Assembly (NCBI RefSeq): GCF_024700885.2
Contig: NZ_CP117016.1
Direction: 5' to 3' (one strand)
Source: Escherichia coli
Lineage (GTDB): Bacteria; Pseudomonadota; Gammaproteobacteria; Enterobacterales; Enterobacteriaceae
DNA length: 64,000 bases
Of this stretch, positions 5,673-40,567 are shown piece by piece. The position numbers were made by a program, and so were the translations under genes. The stretch's first letter is position 1; the number at the start of each line of letters is the position of its first letter. The notes beneath the pieces were generated by a model. It worked only from the letters and a program-made list of their open reading frames with translations, was not told the DNA's origin and made no database searches.

Positions 5673-6715
5673 GCCGACCGCTTCGGCGCATAGGTTGAAA
5701 TAAACCGCGCAATGGCTGGCCCCGTCAGCAAAATACTGAACAGGCGCAGGGTTTGCATCGCCATAATAAGCGCCATATCGGCATTGCTCCCTGCGGCGAT
5801 GACCGCCACGGTATCAAGCCCGCCGGGGCTGGTGGCGAGGTAGGCAGTCATAAAATCAATATGCATAAACCGGGTCAGTCCCCACGCCATACCTGCACAA
5901 ATAGCCAGCAGAGCAAAAATCGACAGCAAGATTTGTGGCAGCGGGCGCAATGCCCGCAGTAAGATTTGCTTATCGAAACCAAGACCAATCCGCCAGCCAA
6001 TTGCCATATACGCCATCGCCAGCAGCCATTCCGGGAGTTCAATCGTGATGAGCTGACCAGACTGGAGCACTGCGCCCGCCAGCATCGGGATGAGCATCGT
6101 GCCGGAAGGAAGACGTAGCAAACATCCCGCCGTACCGGCAACGACCGCGAGCAAAATCGTAAGCAGGAGATTAATGCTCACTGGCGGGAACCAGACGATC
6201 TGCTGGTTAACCGCTTCAGCGTTATCGCCCAGCATCATGCGGGTGACCAGAACAGCGGCCCCCGCGACGAACAGCACTCGCAGATATTGCATAAACGCCA
6301 CCAGGCGAATATCTGCGCCGTAATCTTGCGCCATAGCGACCATTGCCGCCGCGCCGCCAGGAGAAGAACCCCAGGCACCGGTATTTCCAGGCAGTGAGCT
6401 ATAGCGCACCAGTAGCCACCCAACAATGGCGCTGGAAAGCAGCGTCACCAGTAAAATTGTAAGCACGATCGGCCAGTTGACGGCCAGCGTGGTGAGAATC
6501 GAACCAGTGAGGTTTTGCGCAATCATGCAGCCAAGAATGGCCTGGGCGGCGAGAAAAGCAGAGCGGGGAAGTTGCAGAGTAATTCCGCGCATACTAAAGA
6601 TGATCCCGGCGATCATCGGTCCAAGTAATAGCGCCGCCGGGAGATGTAATCCGAGGAAGCCAATAGAAAGGAGAAGTGAGAGCACACATAACATTCCCCA
6701 CTGCAAAACTGGCAT
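5669..6715 (-). CDS. abrB: AbrB-family membrane protein (putative regulator/transporter), 348 aa
   Basis: Hydrophobic multi-pass ORF; start placed at [10 protein letters not shown] (ORF-track start 26 codons further upstream is probably not used) to match the K-12 length. Confidence 0.85.
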
Positions 6716-23822: not shown

Positions 23823-24387
23823 TGCCTTAAATGTTAACCACGGTCGAAATCTGACCGCTGGCTTGACTGCATGACCACAGCCACTGTGGATTGCCGCAAC
23901 CGACCGCAAGCCACGAATAAGAACGACGGCGAATTTCGAATCGTTACCTGATGCACTGGCTTCCCAGCGTTTGACCGTAGCGTTAAGTAAATCAACAAAA
24001 GCGATGTTCACCGCTTATCGTCAAGTCGTGCCATTTGTCAGCCAGGATCGGGTCTTTACCCCGGATATTGCAGCATCGCAAAAATTCTTAGAGGGATATG
24101 CTATAAATCAAAAATAAAATCTTTGTTGATTGTTTATCATAATATCCACAGATATGATAAATGATATCAATTTAATAATTTTCACTTAATGTGATTCCGG
24201 ATAATTCGAAAGGCGCTGTGCTTTTCGGATTATTATTATCTGATTAAGATATTTGTCACGCCAGGCTTACTGGGTTATAAATGTCAATCATGATTCTTAT
24301 AAATTATTTATTGCTGCTTTGGTTACCATTACTTCGTAATAAGTAATGTATTTTTGATGGTTTAAACTATTTTTAAGGGACGGCATT

Positions 24388-25293
24388 ATGCGAGGAAAAA
24401 TACCTAAAACGGAGCTGCTGGTGACTTTTGAGGTCGTCGCACGTCATGAAAGTTATACCAGAGCGGCAGAGGAGTTAGCGTTAACCCAAAGTGCAGTATT
24501 CAGACAAGTGAGTGCGCTGGAGGAATTTTTACATACTCCGTTATTTTCACACTCTAAAAAACGTATTTTTCTTAATGATGCAGGGAAGTATTACCTGGGG
24601 ATAGTAAAAGAAACATTAAATAAGCTGGAACGCGATACCAATACCATTATGACCTGGCAGCCTACGGTTCAGGTTATTGAACTTGCCGTGAATCCTACGT
24701 TTAGTACCCACTGGTTAATCCCAAATTTACATGAATTCACAAAGTTACATCCCGATATTATTGTTAATATTCATTCTTTAGCTAATAACGGCGATTTTCT
24801 TAATCGGGAGTACGATGCTGTCATTATGCGCGAAAATTTTTGCGCGCCCTGGGCGGAAGTAGAATATCTCTTTGAAGAGGAGATTTTGCCGGTATGCAGC
24901 GGCAGTTTGCTTGCAATGTCCGATCAAAAACTGTCAGTGGCAGAACTGCTTACAGAGTTACCACTTCTGCATCAAAGTACCCGTATTACTGGCTGGGAAG
25001 AGTGGTTTGCCTTATCTGGCGTTAGCAGTCCGCTGGTCAACAACGGACCACGTTTCGATTTGCTTTCAATGCTGATTGCCGCCGTGCGCTCGAATCTCGG
25101 CGTGGCGCTGTTACCTCGTTTCGCTATTCAACATGATTTGGATAGTGGCGATATGGTGATCCCCTGTGATGTGCCTATTCGTACCGGTAATCGTTTTATT
25201 ATGACGTGGCAGGAAGAGAAGTCTGACTCACCGCACTTGCAGCAATTTCGTGAATGGTTGCTGGCGAAATCGGTCGTACCGCAGGAGATGTAA
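24388..25293 (+). CDS. LysR-family transcriptional regulator, 301 aa
   Basis: N-terminal HTH (ELALTQSAVFRQVSALEEFL) and LysR substrate-binding-like C-terminal domain; convergent with the distal end of the methylaspartate operon. Confidence 0.85.
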   Translation: MRGKIPKTELLVTFEVVARHESYTRAAEELALTQSAVFRQVSALEEFLHTPLFSHSKKRIFLNDAGKYYLGIVKETLNKLERDTNTIMTWQPTVQVIELAVNPTFSTHWLIPNLHEFTKLHPDIIVNIHSLANNGDFLNREYDAVIMRENFCAPWAEVEYLFEEEILPVCSGSLLAMSDQKLSVAELLTELPLLHQSTRITGWEEWFALSGVSSPLVNNGPRFDLLSMLIAAVRSNLGVALLPRFAIQHDLDSGDMVIPCDVPIRTGNRFIMTWQEEKSDSPHLQQFREWLLAKSVVPQEM

Positions 25294-25326
25294 AACCTGC
25301 GCCTGGCGGGATGCCAGACGCAGTTA

Positions 25327-25929
25327 TTACCAGTCGATACCCGGCTGGGCCTGAATGCCGTTATCAAAAGCATGTTTGACGGGGCGGATTTCGCTTACCG
25401 TATCCGCCATTTTTAATATCTGACTGTGGCAACCGCGTCCGGTGACAATGACACTTTGTTGTGCCGGGCGGTTTTGCAGAGAAGCGATCACTTCTTCGGT
25501 GTCCAGATAATGGTAAGCCAGCATATAGGTCAGCTCATCAAGCACCACTAAGTCGTAACGCTTGTCAGCCAGCATCCGTTTGCTTTCCGACCAGACCTCT
25601 TTCGCCGCGTCGATATCCGCTTGCCGGTTCTGTGTCTCCCAGGTAAAACCGGTTCCCATAATATGAAACTCAACCCCCAGCGGCTGGAGAAGGTTGTATT
25701 CACCGTTGTCCCATTGCCCCTTGATGTACTGCGCAACCCCCACCGTTTTGCCATGACCCACCGCGCGCGTCACAGTACCAAACGCGGCAGTGGATTTCCC
25801 TTTGCCGTTGCCGGTGAAAACAATCAAGATCCCTTTTTTCTCTATCGCCGCCGCGACGCGCGTATCGACCTGTTCCTTCAATTTCTGCTGGCGCTGCACA
25901 TGCCGTTCAGTTGAAATTCGCGCTTCCAT
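25327..25929 (-). CDS. ATP:cob(I)alamin adenosyltransferase (CobA/BtuR family paralog), 200 aa
   Basis: Strong resemblance to E. coli BtuR as I recall it (IIVFTGNGKGKTTAAFG P-loop, VVLDELTY, VITGRG, SELRPVKHAF motifs); last gene of the minus-strand operon. Confidence 0.85.
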   Translation of the reverse strand: MEARISTERHVQRQQKLKEQVDTRVAAAIEKKGILIVFTGNGKGKSTAAFGTVTRAVGHGKTVGVAQYIKGQWDNGEYNLLQPLGVEFHIMGTGFTWETQNRQADIDAAKEVWSESKRMLADKRYDLVVLDELTYMLAYHYLDTEEVIASLQNRPAQQSVIVTGRGCHSQILKMADTVSEIRPVKHAFDNGIQAQPGIDW

Positions 25930-25938
25930 TCATTTTCC

Positions 25939-27591
25939 TTAATGTCCCGCAGGGCAACTGGCGCAGCGGTGTTGCTGCTCAAACTGACTAAAGAAATTAT
26001 TGCCTTTATCATCTACCAGGATGAATGCGGGTAAATTTTCCACTTCCATCATCCACACCGCTTCCATACCCAGCTCCGGGTATTCCAGGCAACGCAGACT
26101 TTTGACATATTCTTGCGCCAGTAACGCAGCTGCACCGCCAATACTTCCCAGATTGAAGCCGCCATGTTTGTGACAGGCATCGGTGACCTGCTGGCTGCGG
26201 TTACCTTTCGATAACATCACCAGACTGCCGCCAGCCGCCTGGAAGGTATCGACATAACCGTCCATTCGTCCACCCGTGGTTGGACCCAGTGAACCGCAGG
26301 CCATGTTCTCCGGTGTTTTCGCCGGGCCAGCGTAATAGACAATATGATGCTTCAGGTAATCCGGCATCGATTCGCCGCTATCCAGCCGCGCTTTTATTTT
26401 GGCATGGGCGATATCGCGCGCCACTACGATGGGACCACTTAACGACACGCGGGTGCCTACCGGTAATCTGGCGAGATCCTGCATCACGTCACGCAACGGA
26501 CGGTTTAGATCCAGCTGTACATGTTGCGCGTGATTTTCTTCCCGCAGTGAGGCTGGAATATATTGCCCCGGATTGTGTTCGAGTTTTTCCAGCCAGATAC
26601 CGTGTTTGTTAATTTTTGCTTTGATATTGCGATCGGCAGAACAGGAGAGCGCCATAGCTATCGGGCAAGAGCCACCGTGACGCGGCAGACGAATGACGCG
26701 AATATCATGAGCGAAATATTTACCCCCAAATTGCGCACCAATACCAAATTGCTGACTGGCGTTGAGCAACGCTTTTTCCAACTCAATATCACGGAATGCT
26801 TGTCCCTGCTCGTTTCCGCTGGTGGGCAAATTGTCGTAATATTTCGTTGAGGCCAGCTTGGCAACTTTTAAGGTTTGATCGGCTGAAAGCCCTCCGACGA
26901 CAAAGGCGATGTGATAAGGCGGGCAGGCAGCGGTGCCCAGCGATTTCATTTTTTCGATTAAAAATGCGGTCAGTTTTTCTGGTTGCAATAGGGATTTTGT
27001 TTCCTGATAAAGCGCGGCTTTATTGGCAGAGCCCCCCCCTTTATTAATACAGAGAAAATGGTACTCATCACCAGCGACGGCGCTGATATCAATCTGCGCC
27101 GGTAGATTGGTTTGCGTATTGACTTCGGTATACATATCCAGTGGCGCATTTTGTGAAAAGCGCAGATTATTTTCCTGAAAAGTGGTGTAAATGCCTTTGC
27201 TTAAGGCTTCGGCGTCGTTACCTCCGGTCCATATCTGTTGCCCTTTACTGGCAACAATAGTTGCGGTGCCGGTATCCTGACAGTTGGGTAATACCCCTTT
27301 TGCTGAGACTTCAGCATTACGTAATAACTGCAACGCAACGTATTTATCATTACTGCTGGCCTGCGGATCGTTAAGAATGCTGGCGACCTGTTGCAAATGA
27401 GCGGAACGTAAGAAAAAAGAGGCTTCATAAAATGCCTGCCGGGCAAGCAGCGTTAATGCTTCAGGAGCGATTTTTATCACTTCTTCGCCGTCTAATTCCG
27501 TTACTGTAATATGTTGATCGCTAATTAATGTATATTCTGTACCGTCTTTATTTTGTAGATACGGTTCTTGCCAGATAAATGGTTTGGACAT
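25939..27591 (-). CDS. fumD: Class I (FumA/FumB-like) fumarate hydratase family protein, probable mesaconase, 550 aa
   Basis: FumA-sized single polypeptide of the Fe-S hydro-lyase family; location in the glutamate mutase/methylaspartase cluster corresponds to the mesaconase/fumarase FumD described for E. coli O157:H7 (from memory). Confidence 0.8.
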
Positions 27592-27698
27592 ATTTCACTT
27601 TTCACCTTAAACGTTAGTGTTACTTAATTGCCGTCTAACTTCATGATCCGGCTTATAAAAATGCGTAGTCATTGGCTTCTGATTGCTTAAGATCCCCC

Positions 27699-28979
27699 TC
27701 AGGGCAGAGCAACGTTCGATTCATTGGGTTTTAATGCTTTACCCCGACAACCCTCGCCGAAATGTTCGCCTTCCCACCGACTCACCAACGCAGCGCCCAT
27801 TGCGTTGCTCATGACGTTTGTCGCGGAACGCCCCATATCAAGGAACGGATCAACGCCCATCAGCAAGATCAGCCCCGCTTCCGGAATATTGAACTGGTTG
27901 AGCGTGGCGGCGATAACCACCATTGAGGCGCGTGGTACGCCAGCCATTCCTTTCGAGGTCAACATCAGGATCAACAGCATGGTGATTTGCTCACCGATGG
28001 ATAAATGGATATTGCAGGCCTGGGCGATGAAAACTGTGGCGAAGGAGCAGTAGGCCATTGATCCAACGAGATTAAATGAGTAGCCAATGGGTAAGACAAA
28101 GCTGGCAATTTTGGGGGAAACGCCAAATTGCTCCAGTTTTTCAAGCGTTCCCGGAAAAGCAGCTTCAGAACTGGATGTGGTAAATGCCAGCAGGGCGGGT
28201 TCCGAAAGGGCACGGGTCAGGCGTCTGATGCAGGGGCCGACATAAACGATGGCCAGACCGATAAGCAGCACCCAAAGTAACAACATGGTGAAATAAAATT
28301 CACCCATAAAGATCCCGGCGCTCACCATAACTGCCAGTCCTCGTTCAGCAATCAATGCTGAAATAGCGGCGAATACGGTCAGGGGAGCGAAGAGCATGAC
28401 GTAGCCAGTGAGCTTTAACATGGCATGTGCCAGCGAATCTAAGGCGTGAACGATGGCGCTGCCTTTCTCACCAATCGCCGTCAGGCTACAGCCGAGGAAA
28501 ATTGAGAACACCACGATTTGCAAAATTTCATTGTGCGCCATGGCATCGACAATGCTGGTGGGGAAAGCATGCGAAATAAATACTTTTAGCGTAAAGGGTT
28601 CTGACGCGACCACTCCGGTGGTTTCGGCACCGTGTGCAACAAAATTAATTCCTGTGCCTGGCATGAAGAAATTTACCGTTATCAAGCCTAAGGCAATTGA
28701 CAGCAATGAGGCGCAAATAAATAAAAAGAGTGTTTTAGAAAAAATACGACCAAGGGCTTTGGCATCGCCCATTTTAGCAATACCTACCACCAGGGTAGAG
28801 ACCACTAACGGAGCGATAATCATTTTTATCAGTCGTAAGAAAATCGTCGTGAATATCGATATTTCTTGCGCATAGAGTTTTGCTGTTTCCGGTGAAGCAG
28901 TGTTATTGATCACTACGCCGATAATCATTCCAAGTACCAGCGCCAAAAGAATCATCGTGGTTAAACTTATTTTCTTCAT
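27699..28979 (-). CDS. Dicarboxylate/amino acid:cation symporter (DAACS, GltP/DctA-like) family transporter, about 426 aa
   Basis: Multi-pass hydrophobic ORF with the family-typical N-terminus; start placed at MKKISL (ATG at 28979), preceded by GGAGGA 7 nt upstream; the ORF-track start at 29000 is a GTG. Confidence 0.8.
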   Translation of the reverse strand: MKKISLTTMILLALVLGMIIGVVINNTASPETAKLYAQEISIFTTIFLRLIKMIIAPLVVSTLVVGIAKMGDAKALGRIFSKTLFLFICASLLSIALGLITVNFFMPGTGINFVAHGAETTGVVASEPFTLKVFISHAFPTSIVDAMAHNEILQIVVFSIFLGCSLTAIGEKGSAIVHALDSLAHAMLKLTGYVMLFAPLTVFAAISALIAERGLAVMVSAGIFMGEFYFTMLLLWVLLIGLAIVYVGPCIRRLTRALSEPALLAFTTSSSEAAFPGTLEKLEQFGVSPKIASFVLPIGYSFNLVGSMAYCSFATVFIAQACNIHLSIGEQITMLLILMLTSKGMAGVPRASMVVIAATLNQFNIPEAGLILLMGVDPFLDMGRSATNVMSNAMGAALVSRWEGEHFGEGCRGKALKPNESNVALP

Positions 28980-29139
28980 TTTTTCCTCCATCAGGTGCAC
29001 GGCGATAAATCAGAATCAGGAGAAGTAGATGCCCGAATAAAAATTCAGGCATCTACCTGCTATTACAACCTTACAAATAGCTGAAGTGTTGAACTGCAAT
29101 AAGTGACGGGATGTCAGTTGGCTAAAAGTGTTCGGATTT

Positions 29140-29457
29140 TTACAAATCGAAACTCATATTTAATAAAGGTGCATGTTGCTGTGCACCATAGACATCATTG
29201 TCACCTACATTCCCGGAGATAATATCTCGTGGCATGACGATTTTTACTGCGTTAGAAGGATCAAACCAGACAATACGATGAATAAAGTCAGGTTCAACAT
29301 GATATAAGCGCGCGATCAGTTCTGGGGTTAATTGCCCTGATGATTTAACTCGCTCATAGTTTTCTTTGGTTTTAAATAAAATATCTAAAACCAGTTCGTA
29401 AGGTCCGGCATTTTTCGAACGAATGACTTGCGCCAGTGAGACAATTGACTGTTTCAT
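29140..29457 (-). CDS. DUF4387-like small protein, 105 aa
   Basis: Small soluble ORF whose start overlaps the stop of the upstream DUF1446-like gene by 4 nt; family assignment from recollection of the DUF1446/DUF4387 pair. Confidence 0.6.
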   Translation of the reverse strand: MKQSIVSLAQVIRSKNAGPYELVLDILFKTKENYERVKSSGQLTPELIARLYHVEPDFIHRIVWFDPSNAVKIVMPRDIISGNVGDNDVYGAQQHAPLLNMSFDL

Positions 29458-30824
29458 GCCTGAACTCCTTCTGGCGTCACCTGTTCAATATGGAAATCAA
29501 AACGCAGAGCGTCGTTGGCTTCAATCAGGTGATATATGGAAAATTCGTATACCGGCCCGCCCTGAATATCAGAAGGGGAGAACGGGAATGCCAGGTTGCC
29601 TGCGGTAGCGATGCGGTTTTCATAGCCGTAGTGCAGCATAGTAGAGCGCACCAGCGAGCAAACGCTATTGGCAATATCCTGGGTCGGTGCAACTACATCA
29701 AGGACAATCCCCAGCTCATGCCCGGCAGTTTGCATCGGTTCATGGTCGCCCATCACCCCGTTTTTGCCGTACAGGTGGAAATTGATGCGAATGCTGTCAT
29801 CGTCGAGCGACAGGTTACGCGAAACGCTGGTTTTGACTTCATCGATGATTTTATCGATCCCGGCGATCATGATCGGGTCGCGCGTTCCGGCGATGGTCAG
29901 ACAGCGGAAGCCCACCCGTCGCGCACCTTCCAGTTTCAGGGCATACGGCGTTTCTTCATGCTTAGAACCGCTGACGTACACTTCGCCGTCATTGACCGCT
30001 TTAAATGTGCAGCCTTTCAGGTTCAACACGCCGCCAGGTCCTGGCAGGAAGTAGGGATCGGATTTCTCATACAGTGTGTGTGCAGCTGCTGACGTTTCGG
30101 TAAATTTACGCTTCGGATTAAATGTCTTCAGCGTAAAGCCGTTGTCATCAATGATGCCCATCGCACAGTCAGAGCCTGAGCCGGGCGTTGCGGCGATTGC
30201 CGCGCATTCAAGGATTTTCCCACAATGCAGCGCCAGACCTTCATCAAAGCCTTGCATGATCGGTAGCGCAGCAAAGCAGGCCGGGTCGTAAGCGCGCCCG
30301 CCCAGCACCACTTGCGCGCCTTCTTTCAGCGCCTGCTGGAAGGGTTCGATGCCCATTTGCGCGACGATATACGTACTTTCGTCAATCGCGTCGTGGGTTA
30401 ACGGCGGGACAAAATCCAGCGCCGTGATTTTGCCGTTATCCAGCGCCTGGTGGACGATGGCTTTGTCAACGTCTGCCGGGATCAGCGCCATCGAGAACGA
30501 GAGGTGCTCTTCCCGGGCAATCTCATGAATTATTTCTCGGCACCACTCCAGGTGTGGAGCGGCACCAGAACCGCCGGCCGTTCCGATCACCACCGGTATA
30601 TTATTTTGCACGCCTGCGGTGATCATATAGCGCAGATCGCGCTTGACCCCTGCGCGATCGGTAAACGGTTTGCCCGCCCCGAGGTAGTGGGGGCCAGGAT
30701 CGGAAGAGCCAGCATCAACGGCGATCAGATCGGGCGATTCTGCCATCGCTTTGCGGAAGCTCTCCTCCGGGAATCCATACCCGAGGATTGCCGTAGGCGA
30801 TAAGACTTTAAAAGAACGAGCCAT
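29454..30824 (-). CDS. AtuA-like (DUF1446) family protein, 456 aa
   Basis: About 450-aa soluble ORF resembling acyclic-terpene-utilisation AtuA-like proteins (my recollection); 3 nt downstream of the methylaspartase gene in the same operon. Confidence 0.6.
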   Translation of the reverse strand: MARSFKVLSPTAILGYGFPEESFRKAMAESPDLIAVDAGSSDPGPHYLGAGKPFTDRAGVKRDLRYMITAGVQNNIPVVIGTAGGSGAAPHLEWCREIIHEIAREEHLSFSMALIPADVDKAIVHQALDNGKITALDFVPPLTHDAIDESTYIVAQMGIEPFQQALKEGAQVVLGGRAYDPACFAALPIMQGFDEGLALHCGKILECAAIAATPGSGSDCAMGIIDDNGFTLKTFNPKRKFTETSAAAHTLYEKSDPYFLPGPGGVLNLKGCTFKAVNDGEVYVSGSKHEETPYALKLEGARRVGFRCLTIAGTRDPIMIAGIDKIIDEVKTSVSRNLSLDDDSIRINFHLYGKNGVMGDHEPMQTAGHELGIVLDVVAPTQDIANSVCSLVRSTMLHYGYENRIATAGNLAFPFSPSDIQGGPVYEFSIYHLIEANDALRFDFHIEQVTPEGVQA

Positions 30825-30827
30825 TTG

Positions 30828-32069
30828 TTAATCCTTAGCCTGCAACAGCGCGATAGTACGATTCATTTCGTTGAAGACGATATCGAGGCCTTCGTCAAAG
30901 CCCATCCCTGGCTTTACCAGCATACGCATAGGGCGAGCGGCAAGGGCGATGTGGACACAGGTGCGGGCACTGACATCAGTTTCATTGCAGGTGCCGCCCT
31001 GGTACGCTTCCATGCTGTGGCTATTGCAGTAAAGAACCGCATCGACGATGTTGTGAATACTGCCCAGATCCGGGGTTTTGATTTGCACCATGTGACAACT
31101 GGCGGCATCAGTAAAATCAACAATATCCTGGTAGGTGTTACACCATTCATCGGCCACAATTTTCACGCCGGAACCGAGGCGCGTCAGCTCTTTGGTAATC
31201 GCGGTCAGCAGGCGAATTTGATCGGGCTTGTTACCGGCATCGACCGGACCTTCAATGTAGAGCGGCAGGCCTTGCGCTTCTTTTTCCAGGCTGGCGATGT
31301 ATTGCGCACAGCGAAGCGGATCCATATCGAAGATCAGACCGATAGTGCCGTATACATCGATGTGCAGGGTAGGGTGGTAGCGTGCGCTGGTGCGCTTGCT
31401 CAGAATACGATCCGACAGCCAGCGGACATATTCGCGCAGTTTTTCACCTTTAAAGCCCAGTTTCTCTTCGACGTTATTAATCAGTGCATGGGGCAGCACG
31501 TCGATGCCCTTAAGGATCATCTTATCGACGGCGATATATCGATCGTCGCCGCTCTGACCAAATAATGGAATGGATTCCGCCACGCGTGGCAACTGCCATT
31601 CATCACAGACCACTTCAGTTTTCAGACGGCCGGTTGCCAGCGCGGTAGCATCAAGCAGCGCCTGTGATAATCCGTAGCGCACGGCGGTATGCAGCAAGTT
31701 GCCGTCAATACGCAATTTGTCGAAGAAACGGGCATTCGGCAGGAAAGCATCTACATCGCGGCCTACCAGTAATGGCTTGATATGGTCGTTGAGGAACGGA
31801 ATAAAGTGCTCTGCGAGGAACAGTGGATCGCGACCACCTGCCCCGGAATACTGTACGGCAGCACAGTCACCTACGGCGACCGCGCCGTTTTCCAGAATCA
31901 ACTGTACCGATACGCACTCCCCGGCCTGACGTACGGCGTTAAACCCCTGTGTTACTGGCTCCCCGGTATAAAAAAAGCCGTCGTGACCCGCTCCGTTTTT
32001 TATCGCCTGCTGGTCATCGAAATAGAATGAGGAGTAGCCAGCGGTGAACAGGGCCTGTTTTATTTTCAT
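30828..32069 (-). CDS. 3-methylaspartate ammonia-lyase (methylaspartase, enolase superfamily), 413 aa
   Basis: N-terminus MKIKQALFTAGYSSFYFDDQQAIKNGAGHDGFFYTGEPVT and length are typical of methylaspartase; start overlaps the glmE stop. Confidence 0.9.
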   Translation of the reverse strand: MKIKQALFTAGYSSFYFDDQQAIKNGAGHDGFFYTGEPVTQGFNAVRQAGECVSVQLILENGAVAVGDCAAVQYSGAGGRDPLFLAEHFIPFLNDHIKPLLVGRDVDAFLPNARFFDKLRIDGNLLHTAVRYGLSQALLDATALATGRLKTEVVCDEWQLPRVAESIPLFGQSGDDRYIAVDKMILKGIDVLPHALINNVEEKLGFKGEKLREYVRWLSDRILSKRTSARYHPTLHIDVYGTIGLIFDMDPLRCAQYIASLEKEAQGLPLYIEGPVDAGNKPDQIRLLTAITKELTRLGSGVKIVADEWCNTYQDIVDFTDAASCHMVQIKTPDLGSIHNIVDAVLYCNSHSMEAYQGGTCNETDVSARTCVHIALAARPMRMLVKPGMGFDEGLDIVFNEMNRTIALLQAKD

Positions 32070-33514
32070 TATGGTCTTCCTATTAATTTACTGTGGGATA
32101 CAGCATTGATGTCATCTACAACCATCTGGAATGTCGGTTGGCGTCCTTCAAAGCGTGCGCGTTCCGCAACGTAATCGTGGTGGAGGTCGAGAATATCTTT
32201 TGGCAATGGAACGGCTCCGGCTTCCAGTACGCGTATCGCGCCGGTGTTGTCACGGACCGGAAGAATTTTGCCCGCGTTGCAGGCGGCTGGCGCAAACGGC
32301 ACATCCAGTACGCCCGCTTCAAATGCCAGCACCGTACCGCGCGCAATATCACCATTACCCAGTTCGAACACTTTATTCAGTACCGCGCGAACCTCGCTCT
32401 TAATCAGTTCAATTTCCAGTTCAACCGCAGGGCAAGGCGGGAATTTCTGCTCGTTGACCATGTTGAGCATCTGGCGGGAGGCTTTCAGCCCCTGAATGTT
32501 GGCAGCGGCAGTCGGGATGCCCCAGGCTTCGTGCGGACTTTTGGTGATGACTTTGGTGGCACCAGACATCCCCGCGACGGCTGCACCCCAGGAGATAATG
32601 GCGAACGCTTTCGATTCGTCTTCCGGAAAGCCGCCCATCCACTGGTGAAACACGGTACTTAATTCATAGTCGGTATAGCCATAGCTCTGAAAGTATTCGT
32701 GTGCAAGTTCACGCAGAGACTGGATCGCCGCGACATCCTGCGTCAGGCTGCCGACCTGTCCATAACCAACGGTGATAGATTTCACACCCTGTTCCAGCGC
32801 CAGTAATCCTTCGATTATCGCGATAGAGTGCGAGATAAACGGCGGGATCAGCGTACCCGTTAGTGGGCCAAACGGTTCGCGGTTGATGCGGATCCCGTGT
32901 TCTTCATACATCCCCATTAAACGATCGCAGTACTGCCAGTCGCGGATCGATTTTTCCAGCGTTACGCGCTTGGCATACGGAATATTGTAGGAAATGCCGC
33001 CGCCTTCATAACTGGTAAAGCCGCTGGCCATCGAGATTTCAGCCAGCAGACGCGCATCTGGCGTGCCGTGGCGGATCTGTAGCGGTTTTTGCAAAGTTTC
33101 GGTGAGGCGACGGCAAGCTGCGACGCCGTGGTTAACTACCGGTAAACCGTTCAGTTTAGAGGTTCCGGCTTCGATGGATTTTTTAATCCCTACAGCCGCT
33201 TCTTCGTACCGATTCAGACGGGTATATGCATCGATGGTGCTCGGCAGCAGATCGCACTCTTCTTGTGGTGTTTTCAGTAGTTCGATGTGTTCGTCCATCA
33301 GCGCCACGCCTGCGCGCGGTTGGCTAAGAGTTTTACCTTCCTTGTCTGCTTTCAGCAGGGCAAGAGAGAAGCGTTTATGCTCAGGAATGGTTTGTTGGTA
33401 TTTAACGCCATCTTCAAAGTTTTCAACATCCTTGCCGGTTTCCCAGGTTTTCAGTACCTGTTGCCGCTCGGTCATGAATTCGTCATGGGTTAATTTCTTA
33501 TTTCGAAGTTCCAT
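32069..33514 (-). CDS. glmE: Glutamate mutase epsilon (catalytic, E) subunit, 481 aa
   Basis: Length and sequence consistent with methylaspartate mutase E chain; sits between glmL and the methylaspartase gene as in clostridial glmS-glmL-glmE clusters. Confidence 0.88.
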   Translation of the reverse strand: MELRNKKLTHDEFMTERQQVLKTWETGKDVENFEDGVKYQQTIPEHKRFSLALLKADKEGKTLSQPRAGVALMDEHIELLKTPQEECDLLPSTIDAYTRLNRYEEAAVGIKKSIEAGTSKLNGLPVVNHGVAACRRLTETLQKPLQIRHGTPDARLLAEISMASGFTSYEGGGISYNIPYAKRVTLEKSIRDWQYCDRLMGMYEEHGIRINREPFGPLTGTLIPPFISHSIAIIEGLLALEQGVKSITVGYGQVGSLTQDVAAIQSLRELAHEYFQSYGYTDYELSTVFHQWMGGFPEDESKAFAIISWGAAVAGMSGATKVITKSPHEAWGIPTAAANIQGLKASRQMLNMVNEQKFPPCPAVELEIELIKSEVRAVLNKVFELGNGDIARGTVLAFEAGVLDVPFAPAACNAGKILPVRDNTGAIRVLEAGAVPLPKDILDLHHDYVAERARFEGRQPTFQMVVDDINAVSHSKLIGRP

Positions 33515-33749
33515 TGATTGCAGCCTTAATTGTTATAGGGTTAAGCATTGAATACTGGTGCGCGCGGCGGCCAGTGGATCGACTCTGGCGACGTTTGCCA
33601 GCAGTGGTAATAGCCCCCGGGAATCGCGGTAATATTCAAATTCGGTCGGTAAGAGAATGCGTTTACCGTCGTCGTTTAACTCGCGGTATTTCAACCAGTG
33701 ATGCATATCGAACTGACTGGCACGCGAGAGCCATCCGCCGGAACCAACG

Positions 33750-33757
33750 ACTTTACG
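33750..33757. repeat. Target-site duplication (left copy) ACTTTACG
   Basis: 8-bp direct repeat immediately flanking the IS26 left inverted repeat. Confidence 0.85.
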
Positions 33758-34577
33758 GGCACTGTTGCAAATAGTCGGTGGTGATAAACTTATCATCCCC
33801 TTTTGCTGATGGAGCTGCACATGAACCCATTCAAAGGCCGGCATTTTCAGCGTGACATCATTCTGTGGGCCGTACGCTGGTACTGCAAATACGGCATCAG
33901 TTACCGTGAGCTGCAGGAGATGCTGGCTGAACGCGGAGTGAATGTCGATCACTCCACGATTTACCGCTGGGTTCAGCGTTATGCGCCTGAAATGGAAAAA
34001 CGGCTGCGCTGGTACTGGCGTAACCCTTCCGATCTTTGCCCGTGGCACATGGATGAAACCTACGTGAAGGTCAATGGCCGCTGGGCGTATCTGTACCGGG
34101 CCGTCGACAGCCGGGGCCGCACTGTCGATTTTTATCTCTCCTCCCGTCGTAACAGCAAAGCTGCATACCGGTTTCTGGGTAAAATCCTCAACAACGTGAA
34201 GAAGTGGCAGATCCCGCGATTCATCAACACGGATAAAGCGCCCGCCTATGGTCGCGCGCTTGCTCTGCTCAAACGCGAAGGCCGGTGCCCGTCTGACGTT
34301 GAACACCGACAGATTAAGTACCGGAACAACGTGATTGAATGCGATCATGGCAAACTGAAACGGATAATCGGCGCCACGCTGGGATTTAAATCCATGAAGA
34401 CGGCTTACGCCACCATCAAAGGTATTGAGGTGATGCGTGCACTACGCAAAGGCCAGGCCTCAGCATTTTATTATGGTGATCCCCTGGGCGAAATGCGCCT
34501 GGTAAGCAGAGTTTTTGAAATGTAAGGCCTTTGAATAAGACAAAAGGCTGCCTCATCGCTAACTTTGCAACAGTGCC
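33758..34577 (+). mobile_element. IS26 (IS6 family), complete 820-bp copy
   Basis: 14-bp terminal inverted repeats GGCACTGTTGCAAA (33758-33771) and TTTGCAACAGTGCC (34564-34577); internal transposase matches IS26 Tnp as I recall; flanked by 8-bp direct repeats. Confidence 0.93.
33821..34525 (+). CDS. tnpA: IS26 transposase Tnp26 (DDE), 234 aa
   Basis: MNPFKGRHFQRDIILWAVRWYCKYGISYRELQEMLAERGVNVDHSTIYRWVQRYAPEMEK is the canonical IS26 transposase N-terminus (from memory); start placed at the ATG 18 nt inside the ORF-track start. Confidence 0.93.
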   Translation: MNPFKGRHFQRDIILWAVRWYCKYGISYRELQEMLAERGVNVDHSTIYRWVQRYAPEMEKRLRWYWRNPSDLCPWHMDETYVKVNGRWAYLYRAVDSRGRTVDFYLSSRRNSKAAYRFLGKILNNVKKWQIPRFINTDKAPAYGRALALLKREGRCPSDVEHRQIKYRNNVIECDHGKLKRIIGATLGFKSMKTAYATIKGIEVMRALRKGQASAFYYGDPLGEMRLVSRVFEM

Positions 34578-34585
34578 ACTTTACG
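34578..34585. repeat. Target-site duplication (right copy) ACTTTACG
   Basis: 8-bp direct repeat immediately flanking the IS26 right inverted repeat. Confidence 0.85.
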
Positions 34586-35748
34586 CACGGTTGTCAGGTC
34601 ACGTCCCATCTGTAAATCGACATTGCCGACGCAGGTGCAGACCTCTTTTTTGGTGCCCGCATGTCTTTCGGTGGCATAACCCACACACAGTCCGGCCAGG
34701 ACGGTATCGAAATATTTTTCTTCTGCATTCGCGGGTAAGTAGTCGGGATGAGCGACTAGATGGCGGAGGTAATGATAAAAAGCGTCCAGCTGTGCGGGTT
34801 GCTGAGCAAAATTCACATTGACTAACTCTTTCGCACTTTCACCAACCACCATTGCCGAGACGCGCATTCCCAGATCGCCTTCCACCGTCCGTTTCACGAA
34901 GGGTTCCGGTACGCCGTGTAAAACGGTGTCGGGCGAGAGCGTGTTGGCACAGGCGGAATAGACATCGGTGGTTGCGCCACCCATGTCGATCAGCATGAAC
35001 TCTTTCCAGCTGTGATCGACGTTACTGATTGCCTTAACCAGTTCAAAGACCGTCCATGGTGTCGGCATTGGTTCTTCGCCTGTTTTATCAACAATGACAT
35101 CCAACCCTTTCCCTTTAACGATGCGTTTAAGGAATATGTCGCAGATAGCCTGGCGTGCAGCTAAAGGGTTCGGATGGTCAAGATCGGGCAGAACGTTGTC
35201 GACGATGGTCAGGTCTTTATGCCCGAGGATCTCCTGCACCTCGTCCTGAATATCCCGGTTTCCGGCATAAATAATGGCGCAGTCGAGTTTGGATTCTGCC
35301 AACACACGGGCGTTATTCAGTCCGTAGCTTTCTTCTCCGCCATCGGTGCCGCCGGTGAACAAGAGAATATCGGGCTGCGTTTCTTCCAGTGCCTGGATAT
35401 CACGGCGGTTCAGCTTGTAGGCGTAATATTGCGCAATTTTAGCACCCGCAGAGTGAGCGGTTACTTTCGCGGTTTCCAGGGTGATAGAAGGCACCAATCC
35501 CATTGCGGCAACCGCCAGCCCACCTTTGGCAGAGGAGGAATACTTCAATGCAACCTCACCACTGTTTAACAGGGGGAGGGCATTATCTACGTTTAACACC
35601 TGGTCCAGGCTGGAGAAAAACCCCTTCGCCAGATGATGGGTGGTGGTTGGGGTCAGAACGTGGTTAACCAACGTTAACGCGTCCCCCTCCCGGGTGAAGA
35701 GGGCTGCTTTGGTCCACGTCGAACCAATATCGACAGAGACGATTTGCA

Positions 35749-36198
35749 TCAGATTGCCTCTTCAAGAATGCGAGTATCAACGTCATGACGTTGGTTGATA
35801 TCGTGGGCCATCAGCTGACAAACATCTTCTAAGTCATGACTTGGGGAAAAGACGCGATCAAATCCCATCTCTTTGAACTTGGTTTCCACGTCAGCGAAGT
35901 CATGTTTTCCGACCACCAGGTTACCGCCCACATAGAGCAGGATGTTACCCAGCCCACGCTCGATGCAGCGTTCGCGCATGCCCAGACAATCGATATCGCC
36001 ATGCCCATAGATAGAGGAGACGACAATCGCGTCAGCACCAGTTTCAATGGCAGCATCAATATATTCGTCCTGGCTGACCATTACGCCCAGATTAATAACT
36101 CTGAAGTCATGGTTGCTAAAAACGCGGTCCAGAACTTTATTGCCTACTGCATGGCAGTCCGCGCCAATAACGCCAATCACAAGTGTTGCTTTCTTCAT
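35749..36198 (-). CDS. glmS: Glutamate mutase sigma (B12-binding, S) subunit, about 149 aa
   Basis: [24 protein letters not shown] contains the DxHxxG cobalamin-binding signature; start at ATG 36198 preceded by AGGA; stop overlaps the glmL start (ATGA). Confidence 0.88.
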
Positions 36199-36745
36199 GG
36201 GTAATCCTTTGTAAGACAGAGAGTAAAATAAGTTACACACGTCGTATTTATGGCCGCTCATAACGGCACAGGTTTAATATCACAGGAGTGTCTTTATCTG
36301 ACCGTAATGTTGCAATTGATCTATTTTCAAAATGTCTTTCGGGAAATGATTGTTTAAAGTGTGTTTTCAAATTCTCATTTTAATTCAGTGTGTTATGTCA
36401 ACTAATGTCATGAATGTTAAATTTTTAAAATTAACTTGATTTGATGTATTGAGATAATTGTGATCAACTTCTAATTTGCATTTTTGTGACGTGGCTTTAG
36501 CCATGAGTAAATACATTTCATAAAAGTTAAGTCGAATTTCACTGCAATTCATCTCTGCTTAATGTAAAAATAATGTTGAAAATAACAAATAATTAATGAT
36601 TCATGCGAATTATGACCTTTGTTAGCTCTTTTGATTTTTCGTAAAAAAGAAAAGTACATGAAGGTGCTACCAGTACGAGTAACGTTAATCAAAAGTTTTA
36701 TTACGTCTGGCAATAACGCAGGCCATTTTTCGCGACAGGAGGGAT

Positions 36746-37168
36746 TTAATCAGTATAATCCTCATACAATAGGTCAGGATTTACTGAACCGTTAACGGGG
36801 ATTTGGTGTTGAAATTTAGAAATGGCGGAGTCAATTAATGAAGACAATATCGGAAAAATGACAGTGTCAGAATTAATTTCAATTAATCCTTCTCGTTGTT
36901 GACCAAAAAAGATATTTATCTTGATTTCATTTGTACTACGGCAATCAATATGCAGTAATTTTTGATCGCTGAGATTTTCTGTTTCATAAATGTTTTTGGC
37001 GATAGTCGGATGTATTGATGCCAGACATCTGCTCAGATAAGCCAGATCCTTTAGGGAACACCCCGCTGAGTAGAGGATGTCAGAGAATTTTTGTGTGTCA
37101 ACTGTTGTCTCTGAAGCGTATGTTGCATTGACAGGAAGGGTGTTGAAAGAGATTTGAGATGGGATCAT
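36746..37168 (-). CDS. Hypothetical protein, 140 aa, no recognisable family
   Basis: ORF in a markedly AT-rich block; co-directional with and 80 bp downstream of the 314-aa orphan ORF; coding status unverified. Confidence 0.45.
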   Translation of the reverse strand: MIPSQISFNTLPVNATYASETTVDTQKFSDILYSAGCSLKDLAYLSRCLASIHPTIAKNIYETENLSDQKLLHIDCRSTNEIKINIFFGQQREGLIEINSDTVIFPILSSLIDSAISKFQHQIPVNGSVNPDLLYEDYTD

Positions 37169-37248
37169 TATTTAAATCTTTCCGTGAGTAATAAAAATTA
37201 ATCCCCGGGCATTGTTTAGCAATATTTGCCACAGGGAATATATAAAAA

Positions 37249-38193
37249 TTAAAGTATTTGATTGGCATCGGTTAACTGATCAATAACCAGTGCCAGATTG
37301 GTAAACATTTTGAAAAAGCGATACTGGCTCGGAATATCTCTTTCAAAGACGAAACATTCAATGTCATTGTTTGAAAAATAAAGGACTAGTGTTGCTGATT
37401 CGTCAGGAAAAATATGGAAATATATCTGGTTACCAGAAGGAGGATAGTCCAGATGAAGGGTATCTTTGCCCGTCACATACCTGTTGTGGTCGTGGATGCT
37501 GCGCTCACACTTCATCAGAGGTGTCATGATACTCATGTATTCATCTGATGTTAATATATTAAAATCACCATCCATTTTAAAGAAACGATAAAGTAACAGT
37601 ACATCCTCTTGCGTAACCGGTTCGTTTGTTTTTAGAGGGAAATAAGTGGGAACCAGAAGATGAGGTTCTAATCTATTTTGTTGAGCGCTATAACTAAATT
37701 TGAACATAAATTCCGGATCGCTCATTAATTGAGCGACATAATTATGCCTGGCTTCAAAAATTTTAACTTTTATCAGGTTAAATAAGTCTGTTTCGTTATC
37801 CTGTATTAAAAGACATTGGCCATAGCAGCCAGGCTTTTTTTCATTATAAGCAGAAACGGTTATTCTGTCAGGAGTGTCAACGTTATATCCAAAAGCCAGA
37901 TAGTGACCTTCCTCATCGAGATTTGTTTCCAGGTTATTTAAATTCATCACATGAAGTGTTTGCAATGCTGATTCAATGAGCTGTTGACTCTCTGAGGTAA
38001 ATGTTTCGCGCTGCGTTGTATAAAGTGTATCGATTCCAACGACTATCCGATGTGGGTCAAGGATGGCGGCAATCATCTTTATTACCTGCACAGTCATGGG
38101 TGATGTCATTGATTCTTTATCTGTTTTTAGAGGATCATTAGATGGCCAACCTGAGAAGCGATTGACAGCAGAACTGATATTATCAGGACTCAT
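37249..38193 (-). CDS. Hypothetical protein, 314 aa, no recognisable family
   Basis: Longest ORF in an AT-rich region with no competing frame; no signal peptide or transmembrane segment evident; no motif I can assign. Confidence 0.55.
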   Translation of the reverse strand: MSPDNISSAVNRFSGWPSNDPLKTDKESMTSPMTVQVIKMIAAILDPHRIVVGIDTLYTTQRETFTSESQQLIESALQTLHVMNLNNLETNLDEEGHYLAFGYNVDTPDRITVSAYNEKKPGCYGQCLLIQDNETDLFNLIKVKIFEARHNYVAQLMSDPEFMFKFSYSAQQNRLEPHLLVPTYFPLKTNEPVTQEDVLLLYRFFKMDGDFNILTSDEYMSIMTPLMKCERSIHDHNRYVTGKDTLHLDYPPSGNQIYFHIFPDESATLVLYFSNNDIECFVFERDIPSQYRFFKMFTNLALVIDQLTDANQIL

Positions 38194-38647
38194 AGCAGCA
38201 ACCTCATTGTAATCAAGCGAGGCGCTGAGCGTACTCGGCTATAGAAAAACTAACTTGCAAAAATCGCTCATTTTTCATTTATCAGGCGAAAGTGGTCTCT
38301 GTTCACTCAGAAACAATCACTCCCGCTAAGTCATACCTGTATCATCGATACATTTAAGTGATTATTACTAATGAAACAATAACATAACGGGCTTACGGCC
38401 GGTGCTCATAAACGCAACAATCAATTAACTTTGATAAAAATATGTTATGTAAAATAGCAACAAATTGGCTAATCTAATCAATTGGTATTATAAAAAGTGG
38501 ATAAGGCGGTTCTGTTAAATAAAACACTGGTTTTTTATCTATACCTTTTCATTGTAATAATTGTGTTGCATAAATATTTCACAATAAATTAACAATAAAA
38601 TTACCAATGATCTATGGTTTATACATAATTAACATATTTGGTTGGTT

Positions 38648-38661
38648 TTGATATAAATCAA
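38648..38661. promoter_or_regulatory. FNR-type site TTGATATAAATCAA in the cydA upstream region
   Basis: Perfect TTGAT-N4-ATCAA palindrome about 340 bp upstream of cydA; cydAB is known to be FNR/ArcA regulated. Confidence 0.55.
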
Positions 38662-38998
38662 TTTTTAATTCTTGAAAAAAATCTGCAAAACACGATAAAT
38701 TGTCGTAGATCAAATTGGTGAGATCGTGACAATTTCGCTATAAATTGATCACTGTCGAAAAATGCAAATTTGCTCAATAAAAACCTGTTTATTGTAAGGA
38801 TTTTGCGGCGTAATATAATTACGGGATCAATTTGGTTTATTCATTAACATATTTGTAACTTTTTTATCATTGTCTTTTCCTCTTTTGATGAAATGGCAAC
38901 GATAGAGGCGAGCAAATAATTTTGTATTGGGGCATGCGTGTGACCCTTTCTAACGGGGTTCACTCTCGGAGTCTTCATGCGATGAGCAAGGAGTCATG

Positions 38999-40567
38999 AT
39001 GTTAGATATAGTCGAACTGTCGCGCTTACAGTTTGCCTTGACCGCGATGTACCACTTCCTTTTTGTGCCACTGACGCTCGGTATGGCGTTCCTGCTGGCC
39101 ATTATGGAAACGGTCTACGTCCTTTCCGGCAAACAGATTTATAAAGATATGACCAAGTTCTGGGGCAAGTTGTTTGGTATCAACTTCGCTCTGGGTGTGG
39201 CTACCGGTCTGACCATGGAGTTCCAGTTCGGGACTAACTGGTCTTACTATTCCCACTATGTAGGGGATATCTTCGGTGCGCCGCTGGCAATCGAAGGTCT
39301 AATGGCCTTCTTCCTCGAATCCACCTTTGTAGGTCTGTTCTTCTTCGGTTGGGATCGTCTGGGTAAAGTTCAGCATATGTGTGTCACCTGGCTGGTGGCG
39401 CTCGGTTCAAACCTGTCCGCACTGTGGATTCTGGTTGCGAACGGCTGGATGCAAAACCCAATCGCGTCCGATTTCAACTTTGAAACTATGCGTATGGAGA
39501 TGGTGAGCTTCTCCGAGCTGGTGCTTAACCCGGTTGCTCAGGTGAAATTCGTTCACACTGTAGCGTCTGGTTATGTGACTGGCGCGATGTTCATCCTCGG
39601 TATCAGCGCATGGTATATGCTGAAAGGTCGTGACTTCGCCTTCGCTAAACGCTCCTTTGCTATCGCTGCCAGCTTCGGTATGGCTGCCGTTCTGTCTGTT
39701 ATTGTTCTGGGTGATGAATCTGGTTACGAAATGGGCGACGTGCAGAAAACCAAACTGGCTGCTATTGAAGCCGAGTGGGAAACGCAACCTGCGCCTGCTG
39801 CCTTTACTCTGTTCGGCATTCCTGATCAGGAAGAGGAGACGAACAAATTTGCGATCCAGATCCCTTACGCGCTGGGCATCATTGCAACGCGTTCCGTGGA
39901 TACTCCAGTTATCGGCCTGAAAGAACTGATGGTGCAGCATGAAGAACGCATTCGTAACGGGATGAAGGCGTACTCTCTGCTCGAGCAACTGCGTTCTGGT
40001 TCTACCGACCAGGCGGTTCGTGACCAGTTCAATAGCATGAAGAAAGACCTCGGTTACGGTCTGCTGCTGAAACGCTATACGCCAAACGTGGCTGATGCGA
40101 CTGAAGCGCAGATTCAACAGGCAACCAAAGACTCCATTCCGCGTGTAGCGCCGCTGTACTTCGCGTTCCGTATCATGGTGGCGTGTGGCTTCCTGCTGCT
40201 GGCAATCATCGCGCTCTCTTTCTGGAGTGTCATCCGCAACCGCATTGGCGAGAAAAAATGGCTGCTGCGCGCCGCGCTGTACGGTATTCCGCTGCCGTGG
40301 ATTGCTGTAGAAGCGGGCTGGTTTGTGGCTGAATATGGCCGCCAACCGTGGGCTATCGGTGAAGTGCTGCCGACAGCTGTGGCGAACTCGTCACTGACCG
40401 CAGGTGATCTCATCTTCTCAATGGTGCTGATTTGCGGCCTGTATACCCTGTTCCTGGTGGCAGAATTGTTCTTAATGTTTAAATTTGCACGCCTCGGCCC
40501 AAGCAGCCTGAAAACCGGTCGCTATCACTTTGAGCAGTCTTCCACGACTACTCAGCCGGCACGCTAA
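38999..40567 (+). CDS. cydA: Cytochrome bd-I ubiquinol oxidase subunit I, 522 aa
   Basis: [41 protein letters not shown] matches CydA; start at the second ATG. Confidence 0.96.

Follow-up and report, generated by a model that had tools for sequence, protein, structure and literature searches.

The perfect FNR palindrome upstream of cydA in the window, the whole stretch of 64,000 nucleotides of Escherichia coli DNA analysed here, is very probably the FNR-1 operator of promoter P1 in an alternative but complete version of the cydAB control region, hereafter the Escherichia-type allele, and the corresponding allele of E. coli K-12 is the one that was likely co-acquired with the mngRAB genes. The FNR-1 site itself is textbook knowledge; what our analysis adds is a promoter dimorphism that runs through the whole species and a footprint of conserved sites that runs through the family. 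The K-12 cydAB control region comprises FNR-1 and FNR-2, three ArcA-P regions, silencing by H-NS and the promoters P1 to P5, as reportedly described by Cotter et al. (1997) and by Govantes et al. (2000); the second site, which by its spacing falls at -1.5, corresponds to FNR-2.

Results

The interval 38194-38998 spans exactly the distance from the start codon of a 314-aa gene (38193, minus strand) to cydA and appears to contain the full cydAB control region (Table 1). Its upstream part is about 31% GC (30.8%).

Table 1. Features of the cydAB control region and its surroundings, in window coordinates; ArcA scores are those of the 18-nt matrix described in the text.
Feature	Position	Strand	Remarks
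FumD/methylaspartate (glutamate fermentation) cluster	23826-36261		begins right behind sucD/sdhX and extends to glmS; annotated after the MLI114 locus (100% identical)
314-aa orphan gene	37249-38193	-	divergent from cydA
Intergenic region, 805 bp	38194-38998		between the divergent 314-aa gene (minus) and cydA (plus)
Distal ArcA box pair	38414-38448		14.0 and 17.3 bits; counterpart of K-12 'cydA1' by position
Proximal ArcA direct-repeat cluster	38578-38635	-	20.5, 16.9 and 16.2 bits; counterpart of K-12 'cydA2'
FNR-1, dyad TTGAT-ATAA-ATCAA	38648-38661		exact match; predicted centre at -53.5 relative to a P1 start at ~38708
P1-like sigma-70 promoter, TTGAAA-18 nt-TAAATT	38672-38701	+	consensus scan; predicted start ~38708
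FNR-2 equivalent, TTGTCGTAGATCAA	38700-38713		exactly 52 bp downstream of FNR-1; overlaps the predicted P1 start
FNR half-site-like element, TTGATCACTGTCGA	38745-38758		inside the family-conserved block TAAATTGATCACnGTCGAAAAA
Second promoter-like element, TTGTAA-16 nt-TATAAT (10/12)	38792-38819	+	most conserved block of the region
Downstream ArcA box	38844-38861	-	20.5 bits; counterpart of K-12 'cydA3'
Imperfect hairpin, ~48 nt	38861-38908	+	in the hypervariable UTR patch 38860-38922
Near-invariant cydA leader, 76 nt	38923-38998	+	stem-loop 38940-38963; Shine-Dalgarno AAGGAG 38988-38993
cydA, cytochrome bd-I subunit I	38999-40567	+	annotated start is the second ATG

The exact TTGAT-N4-ATCAA site, TTGATATAAATCAA, stands where a sequence-only reading of this DNA had placed it, and it is the sole exact match in the 64-kb window. 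Because 12 of 100 shuffled windows contain at least one exact match (mean 0.12), the count taken alone would be weakly significant, and the case for a real site appears to lie in its position and conservation. The same shuffles are what a functionless chance match in AT-rich DNA could appeal to, an explanation that we find scarcely credible for a column orthologous to a ChIP-supported K-12 site, in which the dyad is perfect in 25 of the 30 alignable Enterobacteriaceae and the partner site stays at a constant 52 bp. The K-12 counterpart, TTGATATTTATCAA (positions 6111-6124 of the K-12 locus, L001), aligns with the window palindrome column for column, and because the K-12 cydAB site is catalogued at -53.5 in a ChIP-based table (Table 1 of Myers et al., 2013; PMC3688515), we identify the window palindrome as the putative operator FNR-1 at promoter P1 of cydAB.

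Further TTGAT-containing elements had been claimed nearby, and TTGTCGTAGATCAA and TTGATCACTGTCGA bear this out. The former takes the place of FNR-2: the second FNR site of K-12, TTGTTCTCGATCAA, lies at an equal 52-bp offset downstream of FNR-1, 22 species show the pair at exactly this spacing, and the ATCAA half is kept family-wide. The FNR-2 of the window carries two mismatches, in its left half, and that of K-12 carries one. Sites and spacing alike are conserved across about 30 genera. Transferring the K-12 position (FNR-1 centre plus 53.5) would put the P1 start of the window allele at ~38708. The second promoter-like element, whose -10 hexamer is TATAAT in the window and TATATA in K-12, may correspond to one of the K-12 downstream promoters.

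The sequences of three ArcA regions upstream of K-12 cydA, together with an H-NS antirepression model for ArcA at this gene, have been published (Park et al., 2013; PMC3798270), and from the 115 ArcA boxes in Table S3 of that paper we built an 18-nt matrix. The window has all three zones, each with boxes of the direct-repeat type, and of the 7 hits in the window that reach 15 bits or more, 5 fall inside the 805-bp region, an enrichment over shuffles with p ~0.002 or lower. Across 32 species or alleles, ArcA hits fall only between -290 and -200, -80 and -21, and +180 and +199 relative to FNR-1. The distal pair of the window sits in DNA that cannot be aligned with K-12; the interval 38194-38575 holds two hits of at least 14 bits vs 0.07 expected (p ~0.002, shuffles), and the distal site thus placed seems to be conserved by position even in DNA unalignable between genera. 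In the proximal cluster the TGTTAA repeats are conserved in an alignment of 31 sequences, and a box at +180 to +199 is present in 26 of the 32 species or alleles, that of the window beginning 196 nt past the start of FNR-1. The K-12 DNA of ArcA-I and ArcA-II is not conserved in the window, which has boxes of its own at equal positions.

Sliding identity to K-12 is at background (~50%) upstream of 38570, 70-80% at 38612-38730, 90-100% at 38731-38830, 50-60% at 38860-38915 and 100% from ~38925, and shuffle-calibrated local alignment detected no K-12 homology in 38194-38575 (z -0.7 to 0.4) or in the patch 38860-38920. Over the 303 aligned nucleotides of 38620-38922 (-88 to +215 relative to P1) the window and K-12 differ by a p-distance of 27.8%, which looks like an intergenus level of divergence; blastn of the window core against the K-12 type gave 81.2% over the sole 241 alignable nucleotides, and across the promoter as a whole the window allele falls short of the within-species level of identity to K-12 (~98% or more). 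The flanks are of another order, the sucD end being 98.7% identical to K-12 (1.3% divergence) and the cydA side showing 60 mismatches in 5,500 nt from the ATG (1.1%). Identity to K-12 is nearly complete again from ~38923, within a leader that does not vary between genera. We sought a sharp K-12 junction by megablast and by global and local alignment and found none; homology fades over 38578-38623, drops out over 38860-38922 and becomes perfect only from 38923. Position 38923 was considered as a recent crossover point and rejected: a leader that hardly varies in more than 20 genera is uninformative, by its identity, on the site of recombination.

The sequence-only reading had taken the core cydAB regulatory region to be intact and had placed the right-hand junction of an island upstream of about 38.4 kb. 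Intactness holds for the architecture (three ArcA zones, FNR-1, FNR-2, a P1-like promoter, a UTR hairpin and the leader) but not in the sense of retained K-12 sequence, and the junction does not hold, since K-12 is alignable only from ~38623. It had added that K-12 homology ending downstream of the FNR site would imply a disrupted region. Alignable homology stops 25 bp upstream of the site; identity at the within-species level does end downstream of it, without implying disruption. With these values in hand, an accessory island inserted upstream of an intact K-12-type cydAB promoter, with its junction upstream of ~38.4 kb, seems to us very unlikely. The FNR palindrome and the blocks downstream of it do align with K-12, and against the TPR-type haplotype homology does start at 38358; yet K-12 cannot be aligned upstream of ~38623, its ArcA-I and ArcA-II DNA is absent, the divergence of 27.8% at 38620-38922 compares with ~1% in the flanks, and E. 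albertii has the whole region without the island. Where the junction falls depends on the reference, being 38358 for TPR-type E. coli and ~37143 or further left for E. albertii, with no clean junction for K-12. Relative to K-12, the right boundary of the cassette in all likelihood lies inside the cydA leader, at ~38.92 kb, and not upstream of the promoter, a conclusion that we hold jointly with that of an alternative Escherichia-type allele.

A megablast survey of 5,426 complete E. coli genomes sorted them into full-length matches (1134 genomes), matches from 38358 on, and K-12-like matches from 38623 only, at 89%. Haplotype-specific probes accounted for 5,424 of the 5,426 by three haplotypes: the mngRAB or K-12 type, linked to mngB (3183 genomes, 3172 of them at 99% identity or more with the probe L001 5300-6085); the TPR type (1107 genomes, ATCC 11775 and ST131 included); and the methylaspartate-island type, with its full-length match (1134 genomes). 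Identity within each of the latter two types is 90-100%. That the K-12 type is so uniform would fit a sweep or an origin more recent than that of the others; alternatively, it could reflect close kinship of the carrier strains. A window-type core (at least 92.8% identity) is present in 2247 genomes and a K-12-type core in ~3179, with no intermediates, which puts the window-type promoter at ~41% of complete E. coli genomes and the mngRAB-linked type at 59%. O157:H7-like strains, ST131 and the species type strain are among the 41%, the phylogroup distribution being read from strain names alone.

All haplotypes have in common a sharp left junction directly after sucD/sdhX, at 23823-23825, and the sucD-cydA interval is a replacement hot spot with three states (mngRAB, TPR protein or methylaspartate cluster) and nested right junctions at 38358 and 38923. 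Because the island and TPR types are 80-90% identical over 38358-38647 and at least 98% identical from ~38648, the FNR-1 dyad appears as the upstream edge of a well-conserved core, as it does in every comparison we made. A second exchange point between these two types lies right at the dyad, and the distal ArcA boxes form a 95%-identical stretch within the divergent 38358-38647.

The two alleles might instead have arisen without any transfer, by divergence at the locus itself under relaxed or positive selection on the promoter. Spacer DNA between binding sites does turn over fast in all lineages, but this explanation would have to account for 28% divergence beside genes that differ by 1%, for zero intermediate alleles among 5,425 genomes, for perfect linkage of the allele to alternative gene cassettes and for a distance to K-12 no smaller than that to other genera, and we judge it highly improbable.

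Outgroups were collected by a degenerate-codon scan for the CydA N-terminus, which covered at least 120 species of Enterobacterales, with Salmonella, E. fergusonii and the cryptic Escherichia clades absent. E. albertii matches all of 38194-38998 at 85% (overall 37143-39486, at 84-85%), and its locus runs sucCD, 1.15 kb, a split homologue of the 314-aa gene with remnants of the 140-aa gene, and cydA; the methylaspartate cluster was not found at its sucCD-cydA locus. The other genera, among the species listed, align with the window only from 38619-38648 on, as K-12 does. In the 31-sequence alignment the footprint reads, in order, ArcA-II repeats, FNR-1, FNR-2, two strongly conserved promoter blocks and ArcA-III, followed by a hypervariable patch and the near-invariant leader.

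Over 38620-38922, the p-distance from the window is 2.0% for FY26 (a TPR-type E. coli), 3.3% for E69 and 6.0% for E. albertii, and it rises to 22% for Citrobacter, 26% for Klebsiella and the 27.8% of K-12. The alleles of the window, the TPR type, E69 and E. albertii form one clade in 200 of 200 bootstraps, a clade that K-12 joins in 26 of 200 and from which it is excluded in 174 (87%), in a tree of ~350 partly saturated sites in which the placement of K-12 beside Enterobacter is weak. The K-12 allele is incongruent with the species tree, with moderate support from a short alignment. Its nearest alleles among the species listed are 73-80% identical, and a close donor was not found among the at least 120 species of this sample, which lacks Salmonella and E. 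fergusonii.

The polarity could be the reverse, with the K-12 haplotype (mngRAB and promoter) ancestral and the window promoter either brought in by transfer or maintained as an ancient balanced polymorphism. The mngRAB genes adjoin cydA in at least nine other genera and lie between sucD and cydA in Citrobacter sedlakii, Kluyvera, Enterobacter, Pluralibacter, Superficieibacter and others, so that the mngRAB-cydA synteny could be ancestral and not imported; moreover, the K-12 ArcA-II region (L001 6044-6110) is alignable with several mngRAB-carrying genera. Against this, E. albertii and E69, the two genomes in our sample from Escherichia other than E. coli, both carry the window-type allele; this allele falls beside Citrobacter, in agreement with the species tree, whereas that of K-12 does not; and the K-12 type is far less diverse within E. 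coli. We regard the reversed polarity as unlikely, though it deserves some weight, and we consider the K-12 allele, linked to mngRAB, to be probably the imported one. In one further genome, Enterobacter cancerogenus (L110), the DNA that precedes the cydA-like match resembles none of the other upstream regions and has no FNR pair, so that a paralogue or a replaced promoter may be involved.

The 140-aa and 314-aa orphan genes (36746-38193) are low in GC (31-39%), and neither has a Pfam, NCBIfam or PADLOC match. Because E. albertii keeps the split 314-aa homologue and the 140-aa remnants beside cydA, the orphan genes appear to predate the island, and the 314-aa gene would be part of the ancestral Escherichia locus and not of the methylaspartate cluster. 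The true accessory island of the sucD-cydA locus is the FumD/methylaspartate cluster, described from E. coli O157:H7 (Kronen and Berg, 2015; PMC4682846), a paper whose text does not contain 'cydA' and which does not address the cydA promoter. The cluster of the window resembles the published one in its genes (glmS, glmL, glmE, methylaspartate ammonia-lyase, the class I fumarase FumD, a transporter, cobO and a LysR gene) and was found in 1134 of 5426 genomes (20.9%), compared with the 26.5% reported (PMC4682846); unlike the published gene set, the glmL of the window is interrupted by an IS26-like element. This element (inside glmL, window 33750-34585) measures 820 bp (33758-34577) and has 14-nt terminal inverted repeats (GGCACTGTTGCAAA), an 8-bp target duplication (ACTTTACG) and a DDE_Tnp_IS240 transposase at 33803-34525; strain MLI114, 100% identical in all other respects, does not have the insertion.

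Between the downstream ArcA box and the leader, the RNA hairpin of the window folds at -14.9 kcal/mol (z = -2.5). At this position 28 enterobacterial lineages have unrelated sequences of their own that fold likewise (mean z = -1.8), and by these predictions the structure appears to be conserved while the sequence is not; shuffle-calibrated alignment showed the window patch 38860-38922 not to be homologous to that of K-12. The leader, by comparison, diverges by 0-1.3% from K-12, Citrobacter and Klebsiella and by 0-4% across more than 20 genera, and its stem-loop is GTGACCC...GGGGTTCAC. An Rfam search of 38150-39100 returned no family and one chance-level miRNA match (E = 0.92).

Discussion

If the mechanism of K-12 applies to the window allele, for which both protein binding and the transcription start are predicted by analogy, dimers of [4Fe-4S]-FNR would occupy FNR-1 (~-53.5) and FNR-2 (~-1.5, over the start) under anaerobiosis and repress P1. 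In microaerobiosis, phosphorylated ArcA would bind the direct-repeat zones at 38414-38448, 38578-38635 and 38844-38861, and its binding would lift the H-NS silencing of the 31%-GC DNA, giving peak cytochrome bd expression at low oxygen. The sucD-cydA interval would act as a replaceable cassette, in which the window, TPR-type E. coli, E69 and E. albertii would share the lineage's own, native Escherichia allele. The mngRAB carriers (59% of E. coli) would have a promoter whose divergence matches that between genera and which most likely arrived together with mngRAB; the exchange point on the right-hand side of the K-12 import would be hidden in the invariant leader.

Cytochrome bd-I is required for growth of E. 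coli at low oxygen in the gut and the urinary tract. To our knowledge, everything that is known of its control by oxygen derives from the K-12 promoter. We raise, as a tentative and rather doubtful possibility, that E. coli is stably dimorphic at cydAB, with a xenologous promoter in K-12, the native allele in O157:H7-type and ST131/B2-type strains and in the type strain, and different oxygen set-points for the two. In that case the weaker FNR-2 half, the stronger ArcA boxes, the TATAAT hexamer and the different hairpin of the window allele would translate into distinct oxygen set-points for cytochrome bd, and models derived from K-12 would mispredict the control of respiration in ~41% of strains, major pathogens included. 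On the other side, the switch at cydAB may be near-neutral functionally, because both alleles keep identical site architecture, and a promoter that is 28% different and still has every FNR and ArcA site in register is reassuring for the transfer of K-12 models. The allele pair also offers a natural phylogenetic footprint that marks functional bases. For annotation, the case calls for caution: 'island junctions' called against K-12 can land inside promoters, because K-12 may itself carry a non-native segment.

Set beside the K-12 cydAB promoter, the window allele has the same order and spacing of elements, with 52 bp from FNR-1 to FNR-2, ArcA zones at roughly -220 to -290, -20 to -70 and +196 relative to FNR-1, conserved P1-like hexamers, and a near-identical 76-nt leader and cydA. 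The differences are in the FNR-1 spacer (ATAA in the window vs ATTT in K-12), the left half of FNR-2 (TTGTC vs TTGTT), the scores of the ArcA boxes (20.5 vs 13.0 and 20.5 vs 15.3 bits) and the downstream -10, which is a perfect TATAAT in the window only; the UTR hairpin has a sequence unrelated to that of K-12, further upstream there is no homology, and the next gene upstream is an orphan in divergent orientation in the window and the co-oriented mngB in K-12. Taken together, these comparisons suggest that the window element is orthologous to the FNR/ArcA/H-NS-controlled cydAB promoter of K-12 and would work alike.

Within the species, the closest parallel is horizontal regulatory switching in bacterial core genes, which Oren et al. 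reportedly described in 2014. 'Switched' intergenic regions of bacterial core genes have also been treated with Piggy (Thorpe et al., 2018; PMC5890482), and we did not find cydA as a reported example of regulatory switching in the literature. The cydAB alleles are unlike usual switching in that they are orthologous promoters with identical site architecture, for which no donor was found in our sample. They are like it in that a core operon conserved at ~99% has divergent alternative upstream regions which segregate in one species and are linked to gene cassettes: the flanks differ by 1.1-1.3%, and upstream the genomes split without intermediates into the 2247 and ~3179 counted above. By this likeness, the within-species pattern at cydAB can be read as an instance of horizontal regulatory switching.
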